A stretch of DNA of 64,000 bases from an uncultured Chloroflexia bacterium (GCA_963707215.1 CAVPPB010000002.1:320001-384000), one strand, 5' to 3'. Positions 1 through 48,412 are shown, numbered from the stretch's first letter. Notes: a model not told the origin generated them from the letters alone. Numbers and translations: made by a program.

Positions 1-1065
1 CCCGACATCCTGTGGGACCTGGCCGACCCGGCCTACGGCGGCTCGACCGCCACGGGCGATCGGCGCGTCTACTTCCAATGGGGTGATGGCGCGGGTGCCT
101 GGTCGTCCGTCCAGAGTGCCGTGATCCGCTACGCGGGCCCGCCGGCCGTCATCCGCATCTACGGAGCCGACCGCTATGCGACCGCGGCGGCCGTCGCACG
201 AACGAACTACGCCCCTGGCGTCCCGGCCGTCTACGTCGCCACGGGTCTCAACTTCCCCGACGCCCTGGCAGGTGCCGGGGCAGCCGGCTTCGAGGGCGCC
301 CCGGTCCTGCTCGTCACCGCCGATCGAATCCCGGCCGCGACGGCCCAGGCGCTCACCTCTCTCAAGCCTGAGCGGATCGTGATCCTGGGCGGCACCGGCG
401 TCGTGTCAAACCCCGTCCGGACCGCGCTGGCCGCCTACGTTCCCGGTGGGGCGGCCTCGGTGTCGCGGCTGGCTGGACCGGACCGCTACGCGACGGCCGC
501 GGCGATCTCGGCCGCGACGTATGAGCCCGGCGTCAACGAGGTGCTGATCGCGACCGGGCTCAACTTCCCGGATGCCCTGGCGGGCACCGCCATCGCGGCT
601 CGAGATGGTGCGCCGTTGCTGCTCGTCACCCGCACGACCGTCCCCAGCGCGACCGCCGCCGAGTTGGCTCGTCTGAAGCCGCACAGGATCGTGATCCTGG
701 GCGGGGAGGGGGTCGTCGGCCCGGCGTTGGTCAGCGCCCTTCGGAAGTACACCGACGGGGGGATCTTCCGGGTGTCCGGAGCTGACCGATACGAGACGGC
801 CGCAGCGATCTCGTGGGTGTGGTTCGGCGAGCACCCGGCGGTCGGCTTCGTGGCCACCGGCCTCAATTTCCCGGATGCGCTCGCCGGAGGAGCGCTCGCT
901 GGGCGACTTGGGAGTCCGCTCGTCCTCGTGCCCGGTATCTCGATCCCGGCTCCGATCGATGAGGTGCTCGAGTTCCTGGCTCCGCCCGAGTTCGACGTCC
1001 TCGGTGGCCCGAGCGTCGTCTCGAACGGGGTCATGACCTCGCTGGCGAGCTACCTCGGGCCCTAG
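1..1065 (+). CDS. Cell wall-binding repeat 2 (CW_binding_2) protein, 5'-partial
   Basis: Frame is open from base 1. Three repeats of G(A/P)DRYxTAAA...ATGLNFPDALAG...P(V/L)(L/V)LV. Confidence 0.9.
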   Translation, partial: PDILWDLADPAYGGSTATGDRRVYFQWGDGAGAWSSVQSAVIRYAGPPAVIRIYGADRYATAAAVARTNYAPGVPAVYVATGLNFPDALAGAGAAGFEGAPVLLVTADRIPAATAQALTSLKPERIVILGGTGVVSNPVRTALAAYVPGGAASVSRLAGPDRYATAAAISAATYEPGVNEVLIATGLNFPDALAGTAIAARDGAPLLLVTRTTVPSATAAELARLKPHRIVILGGEGVVGPALVSALRKYTDGGIFRVSGADRYETAAAISWVWFGEHPAVGFVATGLNFPDALAGGALAGRLGSPLVLVPGISIPAPIDEVLEFLAPPEFDVLGGPSVVSNGVMTSLASYLGP

Positions 1066-34657: not shown

Positions 34658-34780
34658 ATGGGCAGCCAGGAGGTTCGCCCGCCTGACGGCCGAGAGATGA
34701 CCTTGATCGAACCGCGACGCCCCGGCGTCGCCCCATTCGCCGCCATGCTCGTCGTCGCCCCTCGGGGGAGGGTCCGATGA
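34658..34780 (+). CDS. Possible leaderless 40-aa uORF coupled to the 34777 gene
   Basis: TATCAT-N6-ATG; stop overlaps the next start (ATGA). Confidence 0.3.
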   Translation: MGSQEVRPPDGREMTLIEPRRPGVAPFAAMLVVAPRGRVR

Positions 34781-35403
34781 GTCGACGCGGCCACCGGGGA
34801 CGTCCCGGACGCCGCTCCTCGGGCCCCGCCAGCAGCGCCGTCCGGGGCCCGGCGCCCGCGCCCGGCCCCAGTGCCCGACCCGAGGACGGCGAGGCGACCT
34901 CGGCGTCGGCTGCGCCCGCCCCAGGCCAGCGTGCGCTGCCTCCATCGGCCGCCCGTGCCGACGGTCCGGCCCGGGTTCCTGCGGACGGGCCGACCGGCAA
35001 CGGCAACCTCCCGCACCTGGAGCGACCCGAGCCGGCGGCCGACCGGGCGCTCGGCACGGCCGTGACCCCTCGACGCGAGCCTGACGGCGAACCCGGCGCC
35101 AACGGTGCGGATGGCCAGGGCCGGAGCGGCGCCACACTCGCCCAGCTCCGCAGGTTCATCAAGAGCCGCCCCTACATGCCGATGCACGAGCTTCGACGCC
35201 GCTTCAGCCTGGACTGCGAGGCTGACGAAGTGCACTCGATCGACATCGGCGGCCGGTACCTCTACGTCGGCCTTCCCGAGCGCGAGGCGGGCTTCGTCGG
35301 CGAGCTGATCCGGACCGGCGAGGTGGGCTACGAGCTCCTGTTGGACCCGACCTGCCCGCTCGTCATCGGCGTCTACGCGATGCGCCCCGTGGTGCGGTCC
35401 TGA
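34777..35403 (+). CDS. Hypothetical protein with a disordered N-terminus and a compact C-terminal domain
   Basis: RBS GGGGAGGG. C-terminal ~90 aa (LRRFIKSRPYMPMHELRRRF...GVYAMRP) look globular. Confidence 0.65.
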   Translation: MSRRGHRGRPGRRSSGPASSAVRGPAPAPGPSARPEDGEATSASAAPAPGQRALPPSAARADGPARVPADGPTGNGNLPHLERPEPAADRALGTAVTPRREPDGEPGANGADGQGRSGATLAQLRRFIKSRPYMPMHELRRRFSLDCEADEVHSIDIGGRYLYVGLPEREAGFVGELIRTGEVGYELLLDPTCPLVIGVYAMRPVVRS

Positions 35404-35416
35404 CCGCACCCTTCGC

Positions 35417-35432
35417 TGTCGGCTGGACGACA
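35417..35432. promoter_or_regulatory. Crp/Fnr (CooA-type) palindrome TGTCG-N6-CGACA
   Basis: TGTCG GCTGGA CGACA, 46 bp from the candidate -10 CAAGAT (35478) of the DVEGH peptide gene. Confidence 0.7.
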
Positions 35433-35530: not shown

Positions 35531-35731
35531 ATGACGAAGCAGCAGAAGCCGATCGAACCGGACGACGCGGCCCCCCGCGTCGCCGAGGACGAGGACGACG
35601 TCGAAGGGCACAACATGATGCCGCTCGACCCGTCGTCTGCTCGCCATCTGGCGGGCGCGCGCGAGCGCGAGATCCGCAGCGACCTCGCCCGGCGCCAGCG
35701 CGAGCATGAGGCTCGACCGCACAAGCGCTGA
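35531..35731 (+). CDS. Small DVEGH-motif peptide (66 aa)
   Basis: MTKQQKPIEPDDAAPRVAEDEDDVEGHNMMPLD...; followed by a terminator hairpin. Confidence 0.75.
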   Translation: MTKQQKPIEPDDAAPRVAEDEDDVEGHNMMPLDPSSARHLAGAREREIRSDLARRQREHEARPHKR

Positions 35732-36402: not shown

Positions 36403-37104
36403 ATGTCGGAGGACGACGGCTTCGCGCTGGAGGCGCTCCGCCGGTGCGCGCTCTTCGCCCAGGCCGACGAGGCGACGCTCCGTTCCTGCGCAGCCCAGCT
36501 GCGGACGAGACGCTTCCGCCGCGGCGAGACCATCTTCCACCAGGGCGATCCGGGAGACTCGCTGTTCATCATCCAGGACGGCTCGGTCAAGATCGTCCTC
36601 CCGTCACCCGAGGGCGAGGAGGCAGCCATCATCGCGACCCTGGGTCGCGGCGACTTCTTCGGTGAGCTGGCGCTCCTCGATGGGGCCTACCGCTCGGCCA
36701 CGGCCGTCGCGGTCGAGGCGTCCGAGACGCTGGTGCTGCGGCGAGAGCCGTTCGCCGCCCTCATCGACAGTGACCCCGGCCTGCGCCACGCGCTCCTGGC
36801 TGGTCTCGCAGCCGAACTGCGGCGCCTGACCGGTCACGTCGAGGAGCTCCACTTCCTGGACCTGCCAGGCCGGCTCGCGAGCCGGCTCGTCCGGATGGCC
36901 CAGGAACAGGACCCGGCTGCCAGCGGCGAGGTCGTGCTCGCCTGGCCGTTCACCCAGTCGGAGCTGGCCGCCATGATCGGGGGGACGCGGCAGACCGTGA
37001 ACCGGCTGCTCGCCGACCTGGTCGCCCAGGACCTCATCCGGTTCGAGCCCGACCGGCTGGTCATCACGGACCTCGAGCGCCTCTCCCGGGCGGCCGAGCG
37101 TTGA
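36403..37104 (+). CDS. Crp/Fnr family transcriptional regulator
   Basis: IFHQGD, FFGELALLDGAYRSATA cNMP motif and HTH TQSELAAMIGGTRQTVNR. Confidence 0.95.
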   Translation: MSEDDGFALEALRRCALFAQADEATLRSCAAQLRTRRFRRGETIFHQGDPGDSLFIIQDGSVKIVLPSPEGEEAAIIATLGRGDFFGELALLDGAYRSATAVAVEASETLVLRREPFAALIDSDPGLRHALLAGLAAELRRLTGHVEELHFLDLPGRLASRLVRMAQEQDPAASGEVVLAWPFTQSELAAMIGGTRQTVNRLLADLVAQDLIRFEPDRLVITDLERLSRAAER

Positions 37105-37132: not shown

Positions 37133-37939
37133 ATGACGAGCCAGGGCCCGCCAGAAGCCTCCGACCTCGAGCGCGCCCTCGAGGCACTCCGGGCGGTGGC
37201 CCTCAGGGCCGAGGCTGCCCGGCGGCTCGAGCTCGGGAGCGGCGAGGCCGTCCTGCGGTCGGTCGTGGAGGCGGCCGTCTCCCTCTTCGACGCCGAGGCC
37301 GCGTCGATCGCGCTCTACGACCCGAGCGCGGATCGGCTGGTGTTCCTGGTCGCCGCCGGCGACCAGGGCCAGGGCGTCGTTGGCCTGTCGATCGGGCCCG
37401 ATCAGGGTCTCGTCGGCTACGTGTTCCAGACCGGTCAGCCGCTGGCCCTGTCGGATGTCCAGCGGGACCCCAGATTCGGGCGCTCCTTCGCCGAGAAGAC
37501 GGCCTACATCCCCCGGTCGATCGTCGCGGTGCCGCTCCTTGACGAGCAGGGCACCGTCGGGGTCCTCGAGGTCCTCGACAAGCGCGACGCGACGGCCTTC
37601 AGCCTGCGCGACATCGAGCTCACCTCGGTCTTCGCCCGCCAGGCGGCCGTCGCCATCCGCTCATCGCGGGTGGAGCGTGAGTCTGCCCTCCTCCTGGAGG
37701 AGGTGCTCCGGGCGACCCTCGGCGACCAGGTCGACGACCGGACCGTCGATGTCCTGGTGGCCGCGGCCGTCGATGATCTCGCCCGCGACGACACGGGAGC
37801 CCTCTGGGCGCTCGTCGAGCAGGTCGCCCGGGTCCGCCGGGCCGATCCGGATCAGCTCGCCCTCGTCACGGACCTGCTCGCCGTGCTGGCCGATCACGCC
37901 GGGCGCGGCCGAGCCGGTCGCCGGGCCCGTCGCGCCTGA
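37133..37939 (+). CDS. Stand-alone GAF domain protein
   Basis: AEAASIALYD...GLVGYVFQTG...DPRF...SIVAVPL...GVLEVLDK...FS..D. Confidence 0.88.
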   Translation: MTSQGPPEASDLERALEALRAVALRAEAARRLELGSGEAVLRSVVEAAVSLFDAEAASIALYDPSADRLVFLVAAGDQGQGVVGLSIGPDQGLVGYVFQTGQPLALSDVQRDPRFGRSFAEKTAYIPRSIVAVPLLDEQGTVGVLEVLDKRDATAFSLRDIELTSVFARQAAVAIRSSRVERESALLLEEVLRATLGDQVDDRTVDVLVAAAVDDLARDDTGALWALVEQVARVRRADPDQLALVTDLLAVLADHAGRGRAGRRARRA

Positions 37940-37945
37940 GCCGCG

Positions 37946-38783
37946 ATGACCGACGAGGCGCTCCTGCCCGCCTGGAGCGAGCCGTTCGCCGGCGAGCGAC
38001 GGACCAGGCTGAGCCACCTGCCGCCATTCGGACGGCTCGGGCGCGACTGGGCCTGGGGAGGGTCCGACGGCAGCGGCTGCACGGTCGCGATCATCGACTC
38101 GGGGATCGAGCCCGATCACCCCGACGTCGGCGGTCGGTTGCTCCGGAGCGTCGTCGTCGAGCTCGACGCGGAGGGCGAGCCGGTCGTCCGCGACGACCCC
38201 GAGGCTCGCGACGTCGTGGGACACGGCACGGCCTGCGCCGGGATCGTCCATGCGCTTGCCCCGGGGGCGGACATCCTGTCCATCCGCGTGCTCGGCCCCG
38301 ACAACCGCGGCAAGGGCGCGGTCTTCGCCGCCGGCCTGGACTGGGCGATCGAGGCCGGTGCCAGCGTCGTCAACCTGAGCCTGTCGTCGAAGAGCGAGGC
38401 CCTGTTCGGGGTCTTCCACGACCTCGCCGATCGGGCCTACTTTGCGAACACTCTGCTGGTCTCGGCCGCCAACAACTACCCGGGTGCGTCGTACCCGTCG
38501 CTCTTCGCCGCGGTGGTCTCGGTCGCCGCCCACGATCTCGCCGATCCGGCCGTCTACCTCTACAACCCGGATCCGCCCGTCGAGTTCGGAGCCCACGGCG
38601 TCGACGTCGAGGTCGCCTGGCGGGGCGGTACGCCGGATGGTCGCCACGGGCAACAGCTTCGCGGCCCCGCACATCGCCGGGTACGCGGCGCTGATCCGTT
38701 CCAAGCACCCGGAGGCGTCCCCGTTCGAGGTGAAGGCGATCCTCGCGGCGACCGCCGACAACGCCCGCGCCCCGGTCGGCTGA
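37946..38783 (+). CDS. S8 (subtilisin) serine peptidase with no signal peptide, frameshifted near 38630
   Basis: IIDSG and HGTACAG in one frame; GNSFAAPH in the shifted frame. Confidence 0.88.
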
Positions 38784-38937
38784 TCAGCACCTGACCGGTC
38801 GGCCGAGGCGGACCCGGGACACGCGTCGCCGCCCGCCGGATCCGACGCTGGGCCGGGGGCGGGCGGCGGTGCTGAGGAACGGGAGCCGGGTCGTGGGAGC
38901 GAGGCCCGGCGGGACCCGTCCGATCAGGTGGTCGGTC

Positions 38938-39423
38938 TCACTCCCCGCTGTTCCGGGCAGTCCGGAAGCCGTGGCCCTCGACGTCGTCGTCCTCGGTGGC
39001 CTTCGGCACTGCGCCCTCGCGCGGGATCCCCGCCTCGCGCGGCACCCCTGCCTCACGGGGCAATCCGGCCTCGCGGGGCTGGCCGAAGCCGTGGCCCTCG
39101 ACGTCGTCTTCGGTCGGGACGGCGCCCTCGCGCGGGATGCCCGCCTCGCGCGGGATGCCCGCCTCGCGCGGGATGCCCGCCTCGCGCGGCACCCCTGCCT
39201 CACGGGGCAATCCGGCCTCGCGGGGCTGGCCGAAGCCGTGGCCCTCGACGTCCTCGTCACCGGTGGCCCGGGGGACGGCGCCTTCGCGCGGGATCCCCGC
39301 CTCGCGCGGCACCCCGGCCTCACGGGGCAATCCGGCCTCGCGGGGCTGGCCGAAGCCGTGGCCCTCGACGTCCTCGTCGTCGGACTCCCGCGTACGCATG
39401 AAGCCCTCGTTCTCGTTGACCAT
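38938..39423 (-). CDS. Multi-cassette DVEGH/PREAG repeat protein (161 aa)
   Basis: RBS GGAGG. Four DVEGHGF motifs separate blocks of 4, 6 and 4 PRE(AG/GA)(L/V/I) hexapeptides. Confidence 0.8.
   Translation of the reverse strand: MVNENEGFMRTRESDDEDVEGHGFGQPREAGLPREAGVPREAGIPREGAVPRATGDEDVEGHGFGQPREAGLPREAGVPREAGIPREAGIPREAGIPREGAVPTEDDVEGHGFGQPREAGLPREAGVPREAGIPREGAVPKATEDDDVEGHGFRTARNSGE
38965..39375. repeat. Nested tandem repeat: 18-bp units inside three ~110-140-bp cassettes
   Basis: Recurring GAAGCCGTGGCCCTCGACGTC (4x) and CCCGCCTCGCGCGG-type units. Confidence 0.9.
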
Positions 39424-39529
39424 GTCGTTCCTCCGCTGGGAGCCGGTCGGCGGGCCGATCGCCCGCGGCTACCAGGGCAGACTACCGTGCGTGTCGAGAC
39501 TCGGCGTAGCGGCGTGGTGACCGCTCCGC

Positions 39530-39545
39530 TGTCGCCGAGCCGACA
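39530..39545. promoter_or_regulatory. Crp/Fnr (CooA-type) palindrome TGTCG-N6-CGACA
   Basis: TGTCG CCGAGC CGACA, 46 bp from the minus-strand -10 TAGTCT (39484-39479). Confidence 0.7.
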
Positions 39546-39565: not shown

Positions 39566-41233
39566 CTAGGGACGGCGGACGCCCGGTCCCCGATACAACT
39601 CCATGAGGCGGACCGACAGGCCAGGTCCGGCACCCACGAGCGCGAGGAAGTCGGAGCCGTCGAGGACGAGGAGTCGGCCCTCGGACAGGGCGGTCACGGT
39701 CGCGGTCCGGGGCGTCTCGCGGAGCAGGCCGAGCTCGCCGAAGACTCGGTCCGGGCCGAGCTCCCGGAGTCGCACCGGCTGCCCGTCGGCGTCCGCCTGG
39801 TCCACGGCGAACCGGCCATCCTCGATGACGTAGAAGCGGTCGGCCGGCTCGCCCTCCCGCACGACGACCTGGCCGGCCGCGACCGTCAGGGGCTCGAGGC
39901 GGGCGACGGCCGCCTCCATGGCCGCCGGGGGCACGCCTGCGAAGAGCGGAAGGCCGGCGACCCGCCGCAGCGTCGCCGACGGCCCATCCGGGGCCATACT
40001 CAGGTCAGGGCCGACGAGCGCGACGGCGACGACCGCGGCGACCACGACCGCCGCACCGGTCGCAGCGAGGACCGGCAGCGGCCCGAGGCTGTCGGCCAGC
40101 ACCGGGACCACCAGCGAGCCCGCGGCGTACGCCAGCGTGGAGACGGTCAGGATCCCGCCGAGGGCCCGTCCGCGGATGGCATCCGGGACGAGCCGTTGGA
40201 AGACGGTCGTCCCGACGACCTCGACGATCAGGCTGCCGGTCGCCGTCGCGGCCATCGCCACGAGGGCGAGCGCGACGATGTCGGCCGCCCCGAGTACGGC
40301 GAGCCCGATGCCCAGCAGCACCGCCCCACCGAGGAGCGGCCCGGCGAGCGACGGACGGAGCACGAGTGCGCCGCTGCCGACCGCGCCGATGAGCCCGCCC
40401 ACCCCGATCGCCGCATTGAGGTAGCCGGTCACCTCCTCGCCGGCCCCGAGCTGGTCGCTCGCCAGCAGGACCGTCAGGACGCCCAGCCCGCCGAACGCGA
40501 ACCCGCCCACGACGTCGAGCGTGCCCAGCCCGATCAAGGGGCGCAGGACGGGCCGGAGCAGCGAGGCAGCGGTCTCGGACGGGGCATCGTTCTTGGCTGG
40601 GGCGTCGCCACCGGGCGCGGGCGTCCCGGCGTCGTCGCGGCTGACCGTGCCCTTCGATGACGGCAGCGTCCAGAGGACGATCGCGACGATCCCGAACGTG
40701 ATCGCGTTGAGGATGAACGCCAGTCCCAGGTCGGCGACCGCCAGCAGCAGCCCGGCCAGGCCCGGTCCGACGATGAAGGCCAGGTTGTCGAGCCCGGCCC
40801 AGGCGCTGTTGGCCGGCCCGAGCTCGCGCTCGTCGCGGACCAGGGTCGGCAGGTAGGACCCGATGGCCGGCCCGAAGAACGCCGAGAAGCAGGTCGCCAC
40901 GATGGCCACGAGGACGATCCCGACGAGGGGACCGTCTGTGAGGACCAGCCAGGCCAGGACCACCATGCAGAGGCCCCGCGCGAGGTCGGTCGTGAAGAGC
41001 ACGAGCCGGCGGTCGAAGCGGTCGGCGGCCAGCCCGGCCGGTAGCGAGAGGACCACGTAGGGCAGCACCCGGGCGGCCCCGACGAGACCGAGAAGGAAGG
41101 CGTCGTTGCTCTCGCGGTAGACGACGACGAGCAGGGCGACGAGGTAGAGCCAGTCGCCGATCGACGAGACGAACTCGCCGGCCAGGAGCCGTGTCACCGG
41201 TCGGTTCGACAGCAGCGCGCGGTAGGTCGCCAT
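39566..41233 (-). CDS. MFS transporter fused to a C-terminal cyclic nucleotide-binding domain
   Basis: GLAADRFDRR motif A, about 12 TMs, then VVREGE...FGELGLLRETPRTATV. Confidence 0.9.
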   Translation of the reverse strand: MATYRALLSNRPVTRLLAGEFVSSIGDWLYLVALLVVVYRESNDAFLLGLVGAARVLPYVVLSLPAGLAADRFDRRLVLFTTDLARGLCMVVLAWLVLTDGPLVGIVLVAIVATCFSAFFGPAIGSYLPTLVRDERELGPANSAWAGLDNLAFIVGPGLAGLLLAVADLGLAFILNAITFGIVAIVLWTLPSSKGTVSRDDAGTPAPGGDAPAKNDAPSETAASLLRPVLRPLIGLGTLDVVGGFAFGGLGVLTVLLASDQLGAGEEVTGYLNAAIGVGGLIGAVGSGALVLRPSLAGPLLGGAVLLGIGLAVLGAADIVALALVAMAATATGSLIVEVVGTTVFQRLVPDAIRGRALGGILTVSTLAYAAGSLVVPVLADSLGPLPVLAATGAAVVVAAVVAVALVGPDLSMAPDGPSATLRRVAGLPLFAGVPPAAMEAAVARLEPLTVAAGQVVVREGEPADRFYVIEDGRFAVDQADADGQPVRLRELGPDRVFGELGLLRETPRTATVTALSEGRLLVLDGSDFLALVGAGPGLSVRLMELYRGPGVRRP

Positions 41234-41433
41234 CGCGCCCATCGCTACGGCGCCCACGTCCGCGTGCTCGACCCCTCCGCCATCGGGGGAGTGTACGGCT
41301 CGTCCCGCCGCTCGCGCCGGTCGTCGGGGTGCGGACAGGACCATCGAAGGGTGGTCTGCGCTCCGGGCGGCGGGCAGGCTAGCGAGGTCGTCGGCGCGAC
41401 CGCGTCTGGGTCAAGGAAAGCGGGAGGCTCCCC

Positions 41434-44050
41434 ATCAACGTTCGCCGAGCGCTGCTCGCAGCGCTGCTCCTCGTCGTCGTGTCCACGGGAGGGACCTCGG
41501 CCGCCGAGCCGGTCCCGTCACCCGCAGCATCCAGCCCACCCGTCGAACCGAGCGTGTCCCCGCTCCCGCCCGACCCTGTCGTCGCCGCTCCCGAGGTCGA
41601 GCAAGTCCCGGCAGCCGCCGGACCCGTCGGCGCGCCCGACGTCGCAGCCGAGCCACTCTCGGCCAGGGGCCGGTACATCGTCCTGCTTCGCGACGGCTCG
41701 ACCTCCGCGCTGGCGAGCTCGCTCGGTCGTCGCTGGGGGTTCCAGCCCGATCGCGTGTTCAGCCGGGCGGTCCGGGGCTTCTCGGCGACGCTGCCGGACG
41801 CGGTCCGCGACCGCCTCGCCCGCGACCCGGACGTCGCAGCGGTGATCCCCGACGAGGTCATCGAGCTCGCCTGGGTGCGCCCGACCGGGATCCGCAGGGT
41901 CAACGCCCCGAGCTCGCCGCTCGCCGACATCGACGCCATCGACGACGCCCGGGTCGATGCCGACATCGCGATCGTGGATACCGGGATCGATCGGACCCAC
42001 CCTGACCTCGACGTCGTCGGCGGCATCAACTGCTCGACGAGCGATCCGAACGCCTGGCGTGACGTGCACGGCCACGGGACCCACGTCGCCGGCACGGCCG
42101 CGGCCATCGACAAGTCGAGCGGGGTCGTCGGCGTCGCCCCCGGCGCCCGGCTGTGGGCGGTCAAGATCCTCAACGACCAGGGCGACGGCCTGCTGTCCTG
42201 GTACGTCTGCGGGCTCGACTGGATCGCCGCCCAGCGCGACCCGTCCGACCCTGACCGGCCGCTCTTCGAAGCGGTCAACATGAGCGTCACCAAATCGGGG
42301 AGCGACGACCAGGCCTGCGGGGACCGCAACGGCGACATCCTCCACCAGGCCATCTGCCGGCTCGTCGGCAGCGGGGTCACCGTCGTCGCGGCGGCCGCCA
42401 ACGACAGCAAGGACGCCGCACTGCGCGTGCCGGCCTCGTACGACGAGGTCATCACGGTCTCGGCGCTGGCCGACATGGACGGGCTCCCCGGCGGGAAGGG
42501 GCCCCAGCTCTGCGGCTCGTACGACGCCGACGACACGTTCGCCGACTTCTCGAACTACGGCGCCGACGTCGACATCATCGCGCCCGGCAAGTGCATCTGG
42601 TCGACCCTCCGGGGGAACCGCTACGGCTACTCGTCGGGGACATCGATGGCGGCACCGCACGTCACCGGCGCCGTCGCCCTGTACAAGGCGTCCCGACCGG
42701 AGGCCACTCCGGCCGAGATCAAGGAGGCCCTGCGGTTCCTGGGGACCTCGGATTGGAAGACCTGGACGGATCCGGATCCCTGGCACGAGCCGCTCCTCGA
42801 CGTGTCACGGCTCGGCCCCCTGGGATCGTTCTCGATGGCTGTCCTGCCCGAGTCCTCCGGCACCGGCGGTGATGACAGCGCCGAGACGACGGTCACCGCC
42901 ACGGTCGCCCTCGTCCGATCGACCACCTTCTTCGAGCCGGTGTCCCTGGCGGCCGAGACGCCCGACGGCATCACCGCGACATTCGACAAGCCGCGCCTCA
43001 TGGGCTTCGGGGTCACCGGGACGACCATGACCCTGACCGCCGCTCCCGGCATCGACCCCGCCGAGATCCCGGTGACGATCCGGGCGACCTACAAGGACAT
43101 CGTCCGGACCACGACCCTGACCCTCGACGTCGAGCCAGCCGCGGTCCGCCTCGCCGGGGCCGACCGCTACGCGACCGCCGCGGCGATCAGCGCGGCCTCC
43201 TTCGGCCCGGGGGTCGCCGTCGCCTACGTGGCCACCGGGGCGAACTTCCCCGACGCCCTCGCCGGCAGCGCCGCCGCCGGCAGCGCCGGGGCCCCGGTCC
43301 TGCTCGTCACGAGGGACACCATCCCGACCGCCACCGCGACCGAGCTCGGCCGCCTCAAGCCGGGTCGGATCGTCGTCCTCGGCGGCGCCTCCGTCGTGAC
43401 CGACGCGGTCAAGGCGGCCCTCGCGCGGTACACCGCCGGCTCGGTCAGCCGCCTCGCCGGGGCCGACCGCTACGCGACCGCCGCGGCGATCAGCGCGGCC
43501 TCCTTCGGCCCGGGGGTCGCCGTCGCCTACGTGGCCACCGGGGCGAACTTCCCCGACGCCCTCGCCGGCAGCGCCGCCGCCGGCAGCGCCGGGGCCCCGG
43601 TCCTGCTCGTCACGAGGGACACCATCCCGACCGCCACCGCGACCGAGCTCGGCCGCCTCAAGCCCGCTCGGATCGTCGTCCTCGGCGGCGCCTCCGTCGT
43701 GACCGACGCGGTCAAGGCGGCCCTCGCGCGGTACACCGCCGGCTCGGTCAGCCGCCTCGCCGGGGCCGACCGCTACGCGACCGCCGCGGCGATCAGCGCG
43801 GCCTCCTTCGGCCCGGGGGTCGCCGTCGCCTACGTGGCCACCGGGGCGAACTTCCCCGACGCCCTCGCCGGCAGCGCCGCCGCCGGCAGCGCCGGGGCCC
43901 CGGTCCTGCTCGTCACGAGGGACACCATCCCGACCGCCACCGCGACCGAGCTCGGCCGCCTCAAGCCCGCTCGGATCGTCGTCCTCGGCGGCGACCGGCG
44001 TCGTGACCGACGCGGTCAAGGCGGCCCTCGCGCGGTACACCAGGCCGTAG
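41434..44050 (+). CDS. Secreted S8 peptidase with an I9 propeptide and 3 CW_binding_2 repeats (probable ATC start; 3' indel near 43995)
   Basis: IVDTG, HGHGTHVAG and SGTSMAAPHV. Signal peptide NVRRALLAALLLVVV follows GGGAGG. Confidence 0.88.
43147..44041 (+). repeat. Three near-identical 303-bp tandem repeats encoding CW_binding_2
   Basis: Units start at 43147, 43450 and 43753 and are almost base-identical. Confidence 0.92.
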
Positions 44051-44065
44051 GCCTGGCTGGACCCC

Positions 44066-44719
44066 TCAGCCGCCCTCCCCGGGCATCGCCAGGGCGGCAG
44101 TCGGCAGGACCGTGCCCTCGAGCGAGAGCAGCTCTCGCTTGAGCTCGAGGAGCTCCTCGCGGGTCCCGAACCAGGACCCGCCGTAGCCACCGAGCGTCCC
44201 ATCGCCGGCGATGACCCGGTGGCAGGGCACGATCAGGCCGATCGGGTTCCGGCCGACGGCCCCGCCGGTCGCCCGGGCGGCCCCGTGTGCACCGATCGCC
44301 GTCGCGACCCGTCCATAGCTGGTCACGCGACCCCACGGGACGCTCCGGACGGCCTCGAGCACCCGGCGGTCCCAGGCGGATAGCCCCCGCAGGTCGATGG
44401 GCAACGACAGCCTCTCGGGCTCCCCTGCCCAGAAGCGGTCCAGGTGTCGCGCGAGCCGGTCGATCAGGGCTCGTCGGGCCGCTCCGGCACGACGGCCTGC
44501 GATCGGATCACGGTGCGTCCGCCGCACCAGGTGAGATGCGAAGGCATCGTCGGTCGATCGGAGCTCGAGCGCCACGACGGCCTGCGTGGTGACGGCCAAC
44601 CGCACGGGGCCCAGGGGACCGTCGAGGACCGCGATCGCGGTCGTCGCCGCCCCGGCGGGCGCTTCCTGCGCACGGTCGACCAGCGCGGCCGTCGGGGGCT
44701 CGGTCTCGTCTCCCGGCAT
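44066..44719 (-). CDS. ogt: Methylated-DNA-protein-cysteine methyltransferase
   Basis: [16 protein letters not shown] and LL..EG motifs. Confidence 0.9.
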
Positions 44720-44754
44720 GTCGCAAGTCTTGCCGTTCAGGACGGCCGACTGCT

Positions 44755-44771
44755 ATACTCGGGGGGAGTAT
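44755..44771. promoter_or_regulatory. CsoR/RcnR-type operator overlapping the copA -10 and RBS
   Basis: ATACT-C-GGGGGG-AGTAT, an inverted repeat flanking a G-tract. Confidence 0.65.
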
Positions 44772-44773
44772 CG

Positions 44774-47497
44774 ATGGACATCACCACCGCGTCCCCGACC
44801 CCGCCAGCCGGCAGCGCACCGCTGGAAGTCCAGCTGCCCGTGGCCGGGATGACCTGCGCCTCGTGCGTCAACCGCATCGAGCGGTTCCTCAACAAGACCC
44901 CGGGGGTCGAGGAGGCGACGGTCAACCTCGCCACCGAGATGGCGACCATCCGGTACCTGCCGAACCTCGCGGGCCGCAGCGACCTCGTCGGCGCGATCGA
45001 GGCGGCTGGCTACGAGGTCAAGCCGTCGGCCCTCGTGGAGCCGGCCGCGGACGACGGGGCATCCGCCGCCGACGCGCTCGAGGCGGCCCAGGCGGCCGAG
45101 GAGGTCGAACGGGCGCGCGAGCTGCGCCTGATGCTGACCCAGTCGATCGTCGCCGTCGCCGTCGCCCTGGTCGCCATGGTCCTCATGTTCTGGCCGCAGA
45201 CGGTCGTCCCGATGGAGGAGCTCAACAAGCTCATCCTCTGGCCCGCCACGATCGTCCAGTTCTGGGCCGGCGGCCGTTTCTACCGGGCGGCCTGGCGAGC
45301 GCTCCGTCACGGCGGAGCCACGATGGACACCCTGGTCGTAGCCGGGACCAGCGCCGCCTGGGTCTACTCGGTCTTCGTCACCATGTGGCCCGAGGTCATC
45401 CACGCGGCGGGCCTGCACCCCGAGACCTACTTCGAGTCCTCGGCGATCATCATCGGCCTCGTCCTGCTGGGTCGCTGGCTCGAGCTGCGCGCCCGAGGCC
45501 AGACGACCGGCGCGATCCGACGCCTGATGGGTCTCCAGGCGACGACCGCCCGGCTCGTCCGCGGCGACGAAGAGGTCGACGTCCCACTCGCCCAGGTCGT
45601 GACCGGCGACCTGCTGCGGGTCCGCCCCGGCGACAAGGTCCCGGTGGACGGGGTGCTCGTCGAGGGCGGGTCGGCCGTCGACGAGTCGATGCTCACGGGC
45701 GAGGCCATCCCGGTGTCCAAGGCCATCGGCGACGAGGTCATCGGGGCGACCATCAACACGACCGGGTCGTTCGTCATGCGGGCGACCCGGGTCGGTCGCG
45801 AGACCGCCCTCGCCCGGATCGTCGAGATGGTCCAGCGTGCGCAGGGCTCCAAGGCCCCCATCCAGCGCCTCGCAGATCGGATCTCGGCCTGGTTCGTCCC
45901 GTTCGTCCTCATCGTCGGCGCCATCACCTTCGCCATCTGGTTCCTGGGTGGGCCGGAGCCCCGCCTGACCCTGGCGCTCACCGCCTTCATCGCGGTCGTC
46001 GTCATCGCCTGTCCGTGTGCCATGGGCCTCGCCACGCCCACCGCGATCATGGTCGGGACCGGCAAGGGGGCCGAGGCCGGCGTCCTGGTCCGTGGGGGCG
46101 AGGCGCTCGAGATCGCGCACAAGGTCGACGCCGTCCTGTTCGACAAGACCGGGACCCTGACCCTGGGCCGCCCGGCCGTGGCCGGGGTCGTCCCGGCCGA
46201 TGGCTGGTCGGCGGGCGAGATCCTGGACCTCGCCGCGTCGGCCGAGAAGGGCAGCGAGCACCCGCTGGCGGAAGCGATCGTCGCCAGAGCGCAGCAGGAT
46301 GAGCTCGGCTTCCGGGCCGTCGACGGGTTCGAGGCCGTTGCCGGTCACGGGGTGGTGGCGACGGTCGACGGCCGGCGCGTCCTGGTCGGCAACGCCCGGC
46401 TGCTTGCCGAGCACGCGGTCGCGATCGAGCGGCTGGAGGATGTCGCGGCGGCCGAGGCCGCGAACGGGCGCACCCCGGTCTTCGTCGCCGTCGACGGCCA
46501 GCCGGCCGGGGTCGTCACGATCGCCGATCCGGTCAAGGCCGAGTCCGCGCAGGCGATCCGGCAGCTCGCCGGCATGGCCGTCGACGCCTGGATGATCACC
46601 GGCGACCGGCGGACGACGGCCGAGGCGGTCGCCCGCCAGGTCGGCATCCCCTCGGACCGGGTGCTCGCGGAGGTCCTGCCCGGCGACAAGGCCGCAGCGG
46701 TCGAGCGTCTCCAGGCCGAGGGCCGGACGGTCGCGATGGTCGGTGACGGGATCAACGACGCGCCCGCGCTCGCGCAGGCCGACCTCGGCATCGCCATCGG
46801 CACCGGGGCGGACGTCGCGATCGAGGCGTCGGATATCACGCTCGTCGGCGGCGATCCCCGTGGGGTCGTCTCGGGCCTGGTCCTCTCCCGGCGGACGATG
46901 CGGGTGATCCGCCAGAACCTCTTCTGGGCGTTCGCCTACAACGTCCTGCTCATCCCGGTGGCGATGGGCGCCCTGTACCCGACCTTCGGGATCACCCTCG
47001 CGCCGGCGATGGCGGCCGGAGCGATGGCCCTCTCGTCGGTGTCGGTGGTCACGAACTCGCTCCGGCTGCGCTCGGTCCGCATCCGCCCGGACGAGGTCCG
47101 CGCGGAGGGGCGGGGCCTGGGCGCGCGGATCGCGGACGCATCCTTCCTGGCGGTCATCGCCCTCCTCGCCGGCGGGCTGGTGGCCGGGGTCATCGCTGCC
47201 GACCGGGCCGTCGCGGCCGGGTCGACCCAGGTCGACCTGGTGGCCCGGGACGTCGCCTTCTCGACCGACGAGATCCGGGTCCGGGCCGGCGAGCTGTTCA
47301 CCGTGACGCTGGTCAACGAGGACCCGGTCCTCCATGACTGGATGGTCGAGGGTGTTGCCAACGTCGAGGTCATCGCCAGGCCCGGCGCCACGGCGAGCGA
47401 CCGGTTCGTCATCGACCAGCCCGGGACCTACGAGTTCATCTGCTCGTACGAGGGCCACGCCGAGGCCGGCATGGTCGGGATGCTCATCGTCGAGTAG
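44774..47497 (+). CDS. copA: Cu(I)-exporting P1B-1 ATPase with a C-terminal cupredoxin domain
   Basis: GMTCASC, TGE, CPC, DKTGT, GDGIND, YN and MALSS. Tail HDW...[11 protein letters not shown]. Confidence 0.93.
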
Positions 47498-47586: not shown

Positions 47587-48300
47587 CTACTGGGCCCGAG
47601 GCTCCCCGGGGCGCCCGACCATGTCGTCGGCGGCGTCCTTCGGAGCCAGCGGCCCCGCCGGCCCGCCATCTCGGTCGCGGACGGCGGGGTTGGCCGAGTC
47701 CGGGGCCTGCACGGCCGTCCGGCTGACCGCCTCGTCCGGGGTGGCATCGCGGACCATCGGATCGACCCAGGCCGGAGCCGGCGGTGTCTTCGCCAGGTCG
47801 CCGGCCCGGATCTCCGCGGCCAAGCCCGGCGCCACGGCGGGGGCGGGGATCGCCCGCGACCCCGCGAGGTCTCCGCCCGCGATCTCGGCGGCAAGGCCGG
47901 GTGCCATGTCAGGGACCGGGATGGACGCGGCCTGCGTCTGGCTACCGGCGGTCGGGGCTGTCAGATCAGAGACCAGCATCGAGGTCGTCGCTGCCCCAAC
48001 AACGATGACACCGGCGATCCCCGCCGCCAGGAGCTTGCGCTGCAGGTCGCGGGCCGCCTCGGCGTTCGGCAGCCGCAGCGAGAGGGCGTGGCCCTCGACG
48101 TCGTCCTCATCGAACAGTCGCAGGGTGACGGTCGTGGACAGGCCGTGGCCCTCGACGTCGGCGCTCTCGTCTGCCGCGATCCGCATCTTGTTGCCGGCAT
48201 AACCGGTCGCGAGGAGATCACGGAGCTGCCCGCTGATCGCCCCCTCGATCGCCCCTTCGACCTCTGTCCCGTCCGCGAGCTTCAGTCGCAGCGCGCTCAT
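47587..48300 (-). CDS. DVEGH-motif single-TM protein
   Basis: SADVEGHGL and EDDVEGHAL, hydrophobic LLAAGIAGVIVVGAA, and two APGLAAEIxxGDLA repeats. SD GAGGTGG. Confidence 0.7.
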   Translation of the reverse strand: MSALRLKLADGTEVEGAIEGAISGQLRDLLATGYAGNKMRIAADESADVEGHGLSTTVTLRLFDEDDVEGHALSLRLPNAEAARDLQRKLLAAGIAGVIVVGAATTSMLVSDLTAPTAGSQTQAASIPVPDMAPGLAAEIAGGDLAGSRAIPAPAVAPGLAAEIRAGDLAKTPPAPAWVDPMVRDATPDEAVSRTAVQAPDSANPAVRDRDGGPAGPLAPKDAADDMVGRPGEPRAQ

Positions 48301-48396
48301 CTCCAGCCACCTCATGGTCGGGTCGCCTGTCGTCCCGTGCCCCAGCACTCTAGGCGCGACGCAGGCCTACGACCAGTCCTCCAGCGACATGGCGCC

Positions 48397-48412
48397 TGTC
48401 GTCTGGCTGACA
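48397..48412. promoter_or_regulatory. Crp/Fnr (CooA-type) palindrome TGTCG-N6-TGACA
   Basis: TGTCG TCTGGC TGACA, 45 bp from the minus-strand -10 TAGAGT (48352-48347). Confidence 0.7.

Follow-up and report, generated by a model that had tools for sequence, protein, structure and literature searches.

What is a small, highly repetitive protein made for when it is punctuated four times by the same five residues, and which neighbouring protein would recognize those residues? The question arises from a gene of an uncultured soil bacterium of the Chloroflexia, located in the window (the whole 64,000-nucleotide stretch of DNA analysed here), whose product carries four DVEGH motifs and which neighbours the gene of a small S8-family subtilase. 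A first-pass annotation had taken the product for a polyprotein that releases several near-identical peptides. On comparative and indirect evidence from sequence, that reading is supported by the conservation of the motif, by the linkage to the S8 gene, by orthologs of that gene in RiPP clusters and by variation in copy number, and the protein, designated type A, is best read as a precursor in which a putative cleavage site has been multiplied. The DVEGH motif is also present in two further protein types of the window, designated B and C (Table 1).

Anatomy and reading frame of the type-A gene

The type-A protein is built exactly as the first-pass annotation had written, with a short head, three DVEGH/GFGQ cassettes holding 4, 6 and 4 hexapeptides, and a fourth DVEGH before GFRTARNSGE. 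The last residues of the head (MVNENEGFMRTRESDDEDVEGH) are the first DVEGH. Each cassette (40, 49 and 40 aa) begins with GFGQ, contains its hexapeptides in the form PRE(AG/GA)(L/V/I), and closes with an acidic run and DVEGH; GFRTARNSGE makes up the whole of the 10-aa tail. Here the earlier description needs correction: the hexapeptides are sub-repeats of the spacer rather than demonstrated cores. The repetition extends to the DNA, where Tandem Repeats Finder detects a repeat of 120-bp period, with 97% matches over 1.8 copies (score 415), as well as 18-bp arrays, one of which has 3.6 copies at 100% identity. Three PREAGI units are identical at the DNA level.

Because the window is 72% G+C, all six frames are open at this locus. 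GC by codon position is 0.83/0.55/0.91 (positions 1/2/3) in the type-A frame, the same pattern as in the Pfam-confirmed neighbours, and the pattern is absent from the four overlapping ORFs in other frames. The good ribosome-binding site claimed earlier is the GGAGGA just ahead of the ATG. The absence of a signal peptide, also claimed, agrees with an N-terminus that is acidic and hydrophilic and that, judged by eye, holds no such peptide; there is no hydrophobic stretch, and L, I, V and F together account for 24 residues of the whole protein. The protein contains no Cys and no AYDG. Its stop codon lies 154 bp from the end of the S8 gene at 38783(+), and the two genes converge, as had been stated; the S8 gene is moreover a conserved partner across relatives. 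A promoter and terminator scan returned 0 sites, and a stem-loop between the convergent S8 and type-A genes is no better than in shuffled sequences (z -0.68).

Table 1. Features of the window discussed in the text. Positions are counted from the first letter of the window; the second row gives residues of the type-A protein.
Feature	Position	Strand	Description
Type-A DVEGH protein gene	38938..39423	-	161 aa + stop, ATG start, coding-type ORF
Type-A protein segments	head 1-22; cassettes 23-62, 63-111, 112-151; tail 152-161		
Four DVEGH motifs of type A	39358-39372, 39238-39252, 39091-39105, 38971-38985 (span 38971..39372)	-	candidate S8 recognition/cleavage sites
Ribosome-binding site GGAGGA	39429..39434	-	5 nt upstream of the type-A ATG
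Palindrome TGTCGCCGAGCCGACA (TGTCR-N6-YGACA)	39530..39545		about 107 nt upstream of the type-A ATG; candidate Crp/FNR-type operator
Crp/FNR-family regulator	36403..37104	+	cNMP_binding + HTH_Crp_2; 233 aa from the ATG at 36403
GAF-domain protein	37133..37939	+	always adjoins the S8 gene
Small S8 subtilase	37946..38783	+	candidate processing protease; frame switch at about 38619-38632
MFS_3-type transporter	39566..41344	-	C-terminal cNMP-binding domain; upstream of type A on the same strand; candidate exporter
Second, larger S8 protease	41479-44142		I9 propeptide + three CWB2 cell-wall-binding repeats
CopA-type P-type ATPase	44444-47494		HMA domain + C-terminal cupredoxin-like domain; adjoins type C
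Type-C paralog	47590..48315	-	two DVEGH-type motifs, transmembrane helix, Pro/Ala-rich tail; palindrome at 48397-48412
Type-B paralog	35531..35728	+	66 aa; one DVEGH, then a single long basic helix; palindrome at 35417-35432
Conserved hypothetical protein	34777-35400		between the M24 Xaa-Pro peptidase and type B; no Pfam match

Relatives of the repeat protein

Type A falls well below the thresholds of curated families (best Pfam model 15.4 bits against a cut-off of 27, best NCBIfam model 8.6 against 45, no PADLOC match), and types A, B and C alike have no family in Pfam, NCBIfam or PADLOC. The PADLOC matches consist of a generic subtilase model and cNMP-domain parts only. A word-indexed homolog search with the type-A protein gave no match. 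An exhaustive library search gave 60 proteins at E<=1e-3, the best of which are long, unrelated, low-complexity repeat proteins; among 20 matches that were fetched, 16 are short proteins with DVEGH or DTEGH motifs and 4 are unrelated repeat proteins. One metagenome protein from this search is 77% identical to type A and has two motifs only.

The other relatives were found by six-frame searches of related genomes, and the related loci are those of Chloroflexota ('Candidatus Limnocylindrales') metagenome-assembled genomes. The same-genus ortholog is 83% identical over the first 83 residues, with three DVEGH motifs and cassettes holding 4 + 2 hexapeptides. Of 102 aligned codons, 60 are the same in both genes, 22 have silent differences only and 20 encode a different amino acid, a pattern that fits purifying selection in the frame of the ORF. 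Analogous DVEGH proteins occur in other genera, and the related Chloroflexota together encode proteins with 1-11 [DE]nDVEGH motifs separated by fast-changing spacers (for example ISKPRATEG, GPEGATRKASPEGNLPRATGG, GIGGGPKGR and GFSKSREAGE). The C-terminus of type A ends in ...GE, often ...SPSSRGE. A comparison of orthologs had been proposed earlier as a check, and its outcome is clear: DVEGH is invariant and the spacers differ from genus to genus, and every relative keeps the acidic run and DVEGH, with a small residue next and a hydrophobic one after it. In a profile of 122 distinct instances from 25 loci, in which E-G-H is fixed by the collection procedure, the motif takes the form [DE][DE]DD, V, E-G-H, [GSA..], [FMLI], with D at -2 in 120 instances, V at -1 in 107 (T in 10) and F, M, L or I at +4 in 74.

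A DVEGH protein of a distant family (L054, 9357-9920) has the His-rich spacers KHTHHGAPKH[VI]HHGAP. In a same-family genome (L056, 5838-6206), Crp and the palindrome are followed by another kind of repeat protein, with FHP[ST]PTG heptads and a degenerate EDTEGQ in the position of DVEGH. A fourth type of DVEGH protein, in which DDDVSGH and DVEGH motifs precede a TPR-like, helical domain at the C-terminus, is located in the slot between S8 and MFS in two loci (L030, 12911-13792; L035, 9492-10151).

A whole-genome scan found no DVEGH coding-frame member beyond types A, B and C. The predicted structure of type B is a helix at residues 34-61 (pLDDT 85-94) after a disordered head; its relatives have 1-11 DVEGH cassettes ahead of the same helix, and the ESM Atlas returns only unnamed Chloroflexota clusters for it. 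The N-terminal part of type C is predicted with a mean pLDDT of 41, a quality insufficient for comparing folds. The CopA-type gene that adjoins type C in the window is present in 9 of the 25 related loci, with type C beside it in 4 of those 9. The conserved hypothetical protein encoded ahead of type B is disordered in its N-terminal part and conserved over the C-terminal ~90 aa (QLRRFIKSR..., ...YELLLDP...), and a purpose-built HMM finds it in most related loci. A full-text literature search for DVEGH-type motif strings gave nothing relevant, and the DVEGH protein family appears new; both the family and the gene module described below appear undescribed.

Copy number and assembly quality

Variation in copy number had been expected from the first-pass annotation and is seen among the relatives: DVEGH occurs four times in type A of the window, three times in the protein of the same-genus genome and twice in the 77%-identical metagenome protein. 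Judged from these sequences, the copy number of type A changes quickly. Public short-read contigs break within the type-A array, and the copy number of the source strain is therefore unconfirmed by short reads; among the public read runs, none holds half of the words. In one run (X4), two single low-depth contigs lack 271 and 239 bases of the array, where 7 and 20 other letters stand instead. Both changes are net in frame, a hint of shorter arrays in relatives. The single hint at the RNA level is a 204-nt contig that covers 38887-39090 at ~96% identity; this metatranscriptome contig may represent DNA carry-over or come from a relative.

The small S8 gene switches frame in the source assembly (Table 1). 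Contigs of two public runs (X1 and X2) have one base fewer at 38632, which would restore the frame. There is also a frameshift near 44000, at the end of the third CWB2 repeat of the larger S8 protease, recognized because the repeat continues in another frame. Since the X1 and X2 contigs lack the base and a second frameshift lies near 44000, an assembly indel is likelier than a strain-specific pseudogene. If the frameshift in the small S8 gene is real, the protease is dead in the source strain.

The small S8 protease

The small S8 protein, of about 275 aa, is of the plain subtilisin type. Among solved structures it is matched best by subtilisin BPN' (2e-24) and Savinase, and its PDB matches further include a chain named 'intracellular serine protease'. 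It has no propeptide and, judged by eye, no signal peptide. It has motifs that correspond to the D, H and S regions of the catalytic triad, and LPAWSEPF at its N-terminus does not vary among relatives. Its best NCBIfam models, mycosin (125 bits), QhpE (96.6) and PatA/PatG (27), all fall short of their cut-offs. A complex prediction of S8, GAF and the same-genus type-A protein scored 0.00, which speaks neither for nor against an interaction.

A conserved GAF-S8 module

HMMs built from the Pfam-annotated neighbours were run on the window and 24 related loci, an ascertained set because these loci were fetched through type B. Crp, GAF and S8 stand in a row in 23 of the 25 loci, and 18 of the 25 encode an MFS_3 transporter that ends in a cNMP-binding domain. 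The type-A protein is encoded in 11 of the 25, between S8 and MFS whenever both flanks are there; where the slot between S8 and MFS lacks type A, it holds another DVEGH protein in three loci and no DVEGH protein in four. The five parts (Crp, GAF, S8, MFS and a DVEGH protein) also occur together in other orders, in a family of the same class (f3) and in one of the same phylum only (f17), for example as Crp - palindrome - DVEGHx7 - GAF - S8 - MFS on a single strand. That these genes stay together although their order has changed speaks for a shared function of the module. The GAF domain of the window is similar to GAF domains that bind cNMP in phosphodiesterases and in an adenylate cyclase.

The association was also followed through whole genomes. 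Among same-family genomes without the DDVEGH coding pattern (94-97% complete), none of five matches the S8 profile at E<=1e-40, compared with five of five genomes with arrays, each of which matches once, beside the array. In a sample of 401 genomes of the phylum, S8 is present in 45 at E<=1e-60; these include one genome flagged as unpublished (G182), on which nothing else rests. By hand cross-tabulation, an exact 18-mer for DDVEGH is found in 24 of the 45 S8-positive genomes versus 41 of the 356 S8-negative ones, and in 19 of those 24 a match lies within 5 kb of the S8 gene.

In the window itself, a Pfam scan of the 16 predicted genes between 27892 and 52043 found no modifying enzyme, heterocyclase or macrocyclase, and no LANC_like or kinase gene. 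What the window does hold is an S8 ortholog next to a GAF gene, a nearby ORF with [DE][VTI][EQS]G[HY], and a transporter gene. These are the elements of what is called here the GAF-S8 peptide-maturation module of Chloroflexota, a grouping defined in this analysis and not a published family.

The motif at leader/core junctions of distant loci

The module extends to loci in which the putative recognition motif differs. Twelve loci that are S8-positive but negative for the DDVEGH pattern were compared, and GAF adjoins S8 in all 12. Small ORFs (<=180 aa, stop to stop) with [DE][VTI][EQS]G[HY] are present in 10 of them (12 ORFs), against 0 of 12 in reversed-sequence controls. Plain variants of the motif in these loci include DDTEGHRAKLPGAA (six times) and DDVSGH (twice). 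The S8 orthologs, like the S8 of the window, have an N-terminal P[AE]WS..F and EWAWGG, and those of L067, L058 and L061, described next, match the same profile at E-values of 1e-90 to 1e-105.

Two of these loci, L067 (3293-12529) and L058, belong to a coded family (f9) with 41-45% GC and hold a lanthipeptide-type cluster with a 75-aa precursor. In L067, an 893-aa RamC_N/Pkinase/LANC_like synthetase is followed by GAF, S8, MFS_3 and a cyclase-NB-ARC-TPR protein, so that a nucleotide cyclase (Guanylate_cyc-NB-ARC-TPR) is encoded within the cluster. The precursor of L067 reads ...SSSEVSGY-AHALFTDSWGCVKL, and the two precursors together ...SSSEVSGY-AHALFTDSWGCVK(L/A). In a third locus, L061 (8210-14946), the cluster contains three radical-SAM proteins, MFS_3, S8 and GAF, and the precursor reads ...EAADVQGY-AKGNGNFYY. 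This cluster, which adjoins the GAF-S8 pair, also encodes a Haem_oxygenas_2 protein, and its precursor ends in ...ADVQGYAKGNGNFYY. In L063, L065 and L059, the precursors have EVQGY or DVQGY followed by aromatic-rich cores, and GAF-S8 is again present; L063 and L065 encode an ABC exporter fused to a cNMP-binding domain.

In these single-core precursors, [DE]V[QS]GY stands exactly at the boundary between a leader-like part and a short C-terminal core. Because the motif is located at a leader/core junction beside orthologous proteases, [DE]V[EQS]G[HY] is likely, as far as sequences can indicate, to be the recognition site of this S8 lineage. The Val at P4 and the aromatic residue or His at P1 fit the preferences of subtilisins. 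They also fit the PatA site: as one account describes them, PatA-like subtilisin proteases cut after G(L/V)E(A/P)S, a site with the shape hydrophobic-E-small-x (PMC10885120).

An operator-like palindrome

In the window, the pattern TGTCR-N6-YGACA occurs at 3 sites versus 0.23 expected, a number reached in 0 of 100 shuffles, and the three sites stand before the genes of types B, A and C (Table 1). In the 24 related loci (412,818 bp), 23 of 27 palindromes lie <=450 nt upstream of the first motif in a DVEGH gene. The count over the whole genome is 7, against 9 for an everted control pattern, and it is thus the placement of the palindrome that is informative, not its count. The Crp-type protein of the cluster would be the candidate to bind this site.

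A proposed mechanism and its alternatives

Taken together, these observations lead us, with moderate confidence, to regard DVEGH as the probable recognition and cleavage site of the S8 protease and type A as a probable multi-cassette precursor. Type A would be a cytoplasmic, intrinsically disordered protein, and the adjacent small S8 protease, with its GAF partner, would cut it at each [DE]nDVEGH, with Val at P4 and His at P1. Cuts after each His would split the protein into its head of 22 aa, its tail GFRTARNSGE of 10 aa and, between them, three near-identical peptides that are 40, 49 and 40 aa long. The Crp-type regulator of the cluster would probably control transcription via TGTCR-N6-YGACA, and the neighbouring cNMP-domain MFS transporter would probably export the products. 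Because the cluster is without a modifying enzyme, these products may be unmodified, and the label 'RiPP' is not warranted for type A. We infer cleavage and its exact position, as well as the protein bound at the palindrome, the ligand, the export step and the role of the peptides.

If Crp, GAF-S8 and the cNMP-domain MFS act as proposed, then a cyclic nucleotide would govern every step from synthesis through cutting to export. Such a second-messenger-gated release, in which a cyclic nucleotide switches transcription, GAF-S8 proteolysis and the export of many identical unmodified peptides, is a tentative extension that we consider possible rather than probable. If it is true, soil Chloroflexota would have a bacterial equivalent of the multi-copy pro-hormones, serving competition or signalling between cells, and the same gated GAF-S8 module would have been reused as a leader peptidase by lanthipeptide and radical-SAM pathways.

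Some features count against a precursor, among them the lack of a modifying enzyme in the cluster. The 'cores' of type A are long, of low complexity and internally repetitive, unlike known bioactive cores, and at 40-49 aa the peptides would be bulky cargo for an MFS transporter. In addition, the motif is found in the membrane-anchored type C and before the 40-aa helix of type B, and could thus serve regulation instead of product release. It is conceivable, if rather unlikely, that DVEGH is a pseudo-substrate or multivalent docking site that binds S8 and/or GAF without productive peptide release and so titrates, inhibits or localises the protease. The arrangement would be somewhat like a product-like propeptide, with types A, B and C as regulators or clients of one reader. 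An S8 protease without a propeptide of its own would suit such a role, as would the joining of the motif to unrelated C-terminal modules (helix, TM anchor, TPR-like tail) and a multivalency of 1 to 11 motifs. However, in the lanthipeptide-synthetase and radical-SAM clusters the homologous motif is located at the expected point of leader removal, and exporter genes are conserved beside the GAF-S8 pair.

The proximity of a CopA-type ATPase in 9 of the 25 loci, with type C adjoining, raises a different model, in which a disordered protein would bind or buffer Cu, Ni or Zn through its acidic clusters and His, the repeats would provide capacity, and the link to the protease would be secondary. The invariant His with 3-5 flanking carboxylates is compatible with this, and one relative has the His-rich spacers described above, with GHGHG variants existing as well. 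Nevertheless, a single His serves 15-49 residues in most units, the model does not account for the invariant Val and Gly, and the conserved linkage is to GAF-S8 and not to CopA. The Tyr that replaces His in distant relatives suits the P1 pocket of a protease but not a metal site. Metal binding is given a low probability, lower than that of docking. An ATCUN-type copper site, formed by a cut before EGH, was considered and dropped; the distant relatives have Tyr for His.

Finally, the repeat could be without any sequence-specific function, type A being either a hydrophilic protein of a generic stress or filler kind or a product of faulty assembly, as its low-complexity composition (and hence best library matches to unrelated long repeat proteins), the failure of short-read contigs to span the array and at least two nearby frameshifts in the assembly might suggest, but an ORF that stays in frame through the array with coding-type codon-position GC, a motif kept in orthologs and dozens of relatives, and a conserved operator-like site make this very improbable. 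The earlier concerns that the repeat is an assembly artefact or that DVEGH is unconserved are likewise largely refuted by conservation in relatives.

If the cleavable multi-cassette precursor is confirmed, it would be of use in several fields: the motif would help genome miners to find precursors in an uncultured phylum, peptide engineers could turn to a cytoplasmic protease whose five-residue site is defined, and microbial ecologists would have a candidate signalling system in abundant soil bacteria.

Comparison with known systems

Tandem peptides split by a subtilase site, in numbers that vary, are familiar from the multi-copy pro-peptides processed by kexin-type S8 proteases, such as yeast alpha-factor and the fungal Kex2-processed RiPP precursors. 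Those systems differ in belonging to the eukaryotic secretory pathway, in using dibasic sites and in having no homology to the window protein. QhpE, a subtilisin-like serine protease, is a small enzyme of the cytoplasm and cleaves off a leader peptide. Its model (NCBIfam NF049966) is the second-best NCBIfam match of the window S8, whose 96.6 bits against a cut-off of 165 place it outside the family, and no quinohemoprotein genes were seen.

Of the features of class III/IV lanthipeptides, a LanKC/LanL-type synthetase (LANC_like/kinase gene) is absent from the cluster of the window and Cys from the type-A protein, and both are present in L067. The L067/L058 and L061 clusters nevertheless have in common with the window an orthologous S8, an adjacent GAF, MFS_3 and a homologous junction motif, [DE]V[QS]GY. 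Each of their precursors carries a single motif, a leader-like part that is structured and a short core rich in Cys or aromatic residues, and modifying enzymes are encoded close by. The type-A protein, in contrast, carries four motifs, lacks a leader of this sort and has no modifying enzyme encoded in its neighbourhood. The coupling of a cNMP-binding domain to peptide export is shared with the cyc_nuc_ocin family (TIGR03896; cNMP-binding, bacteriocin-type transport), although the matches are weak and confined to the domain level, with 29.6 and 32.4 bits where the cut-off is 161.

We know of no intracellular subtilisin protease (ISP) with a GAF partner or a dedicated repeat substrate. In other respects the ISPs are similar to the small S8 protein, being cytoplasmic and without a classical propeptide, with a short conserved N-terminus (LIPY, compared with LPAWSEPF here); the ISPs have an inhibitory N-terminal pro-peptide (PMC6220982).

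The cyanobactin PatE/PatA/PatG system likewise combines several cassettes flanked by conserved recognition sequences with processing by the S8 family, and its PatA site, G(L/V)E(A/P)S, and V-E-G-H are alike in their hydrophobic-Glu-small-x shape (PMC10885120). Even so, the window S8 scores 27.2 bits on the PatA/PatG model (TIGR03895, cut-off 421), and its cluster is without a heterocyclase, the AYDG macrocyclase signature or Cys/Ser/Thr-rich cores, and has instead a GAF partner and a cNMP-domain exporter.

Multi-cassette precursors cut by subtilisin-like proteases are thus of an already known kind. The pairing of S8 with GAF, beside cNMP-domain exporters, suggests cyclic-nucleotide control of peptide maturation, which appears new, as does the use of a single junction motif, [DE]V[EQS]G[HY], across clusters that are otherwise unrelated and that involve a lanthipeptide synthetase, radical SAM proteins or unmodified repeats.
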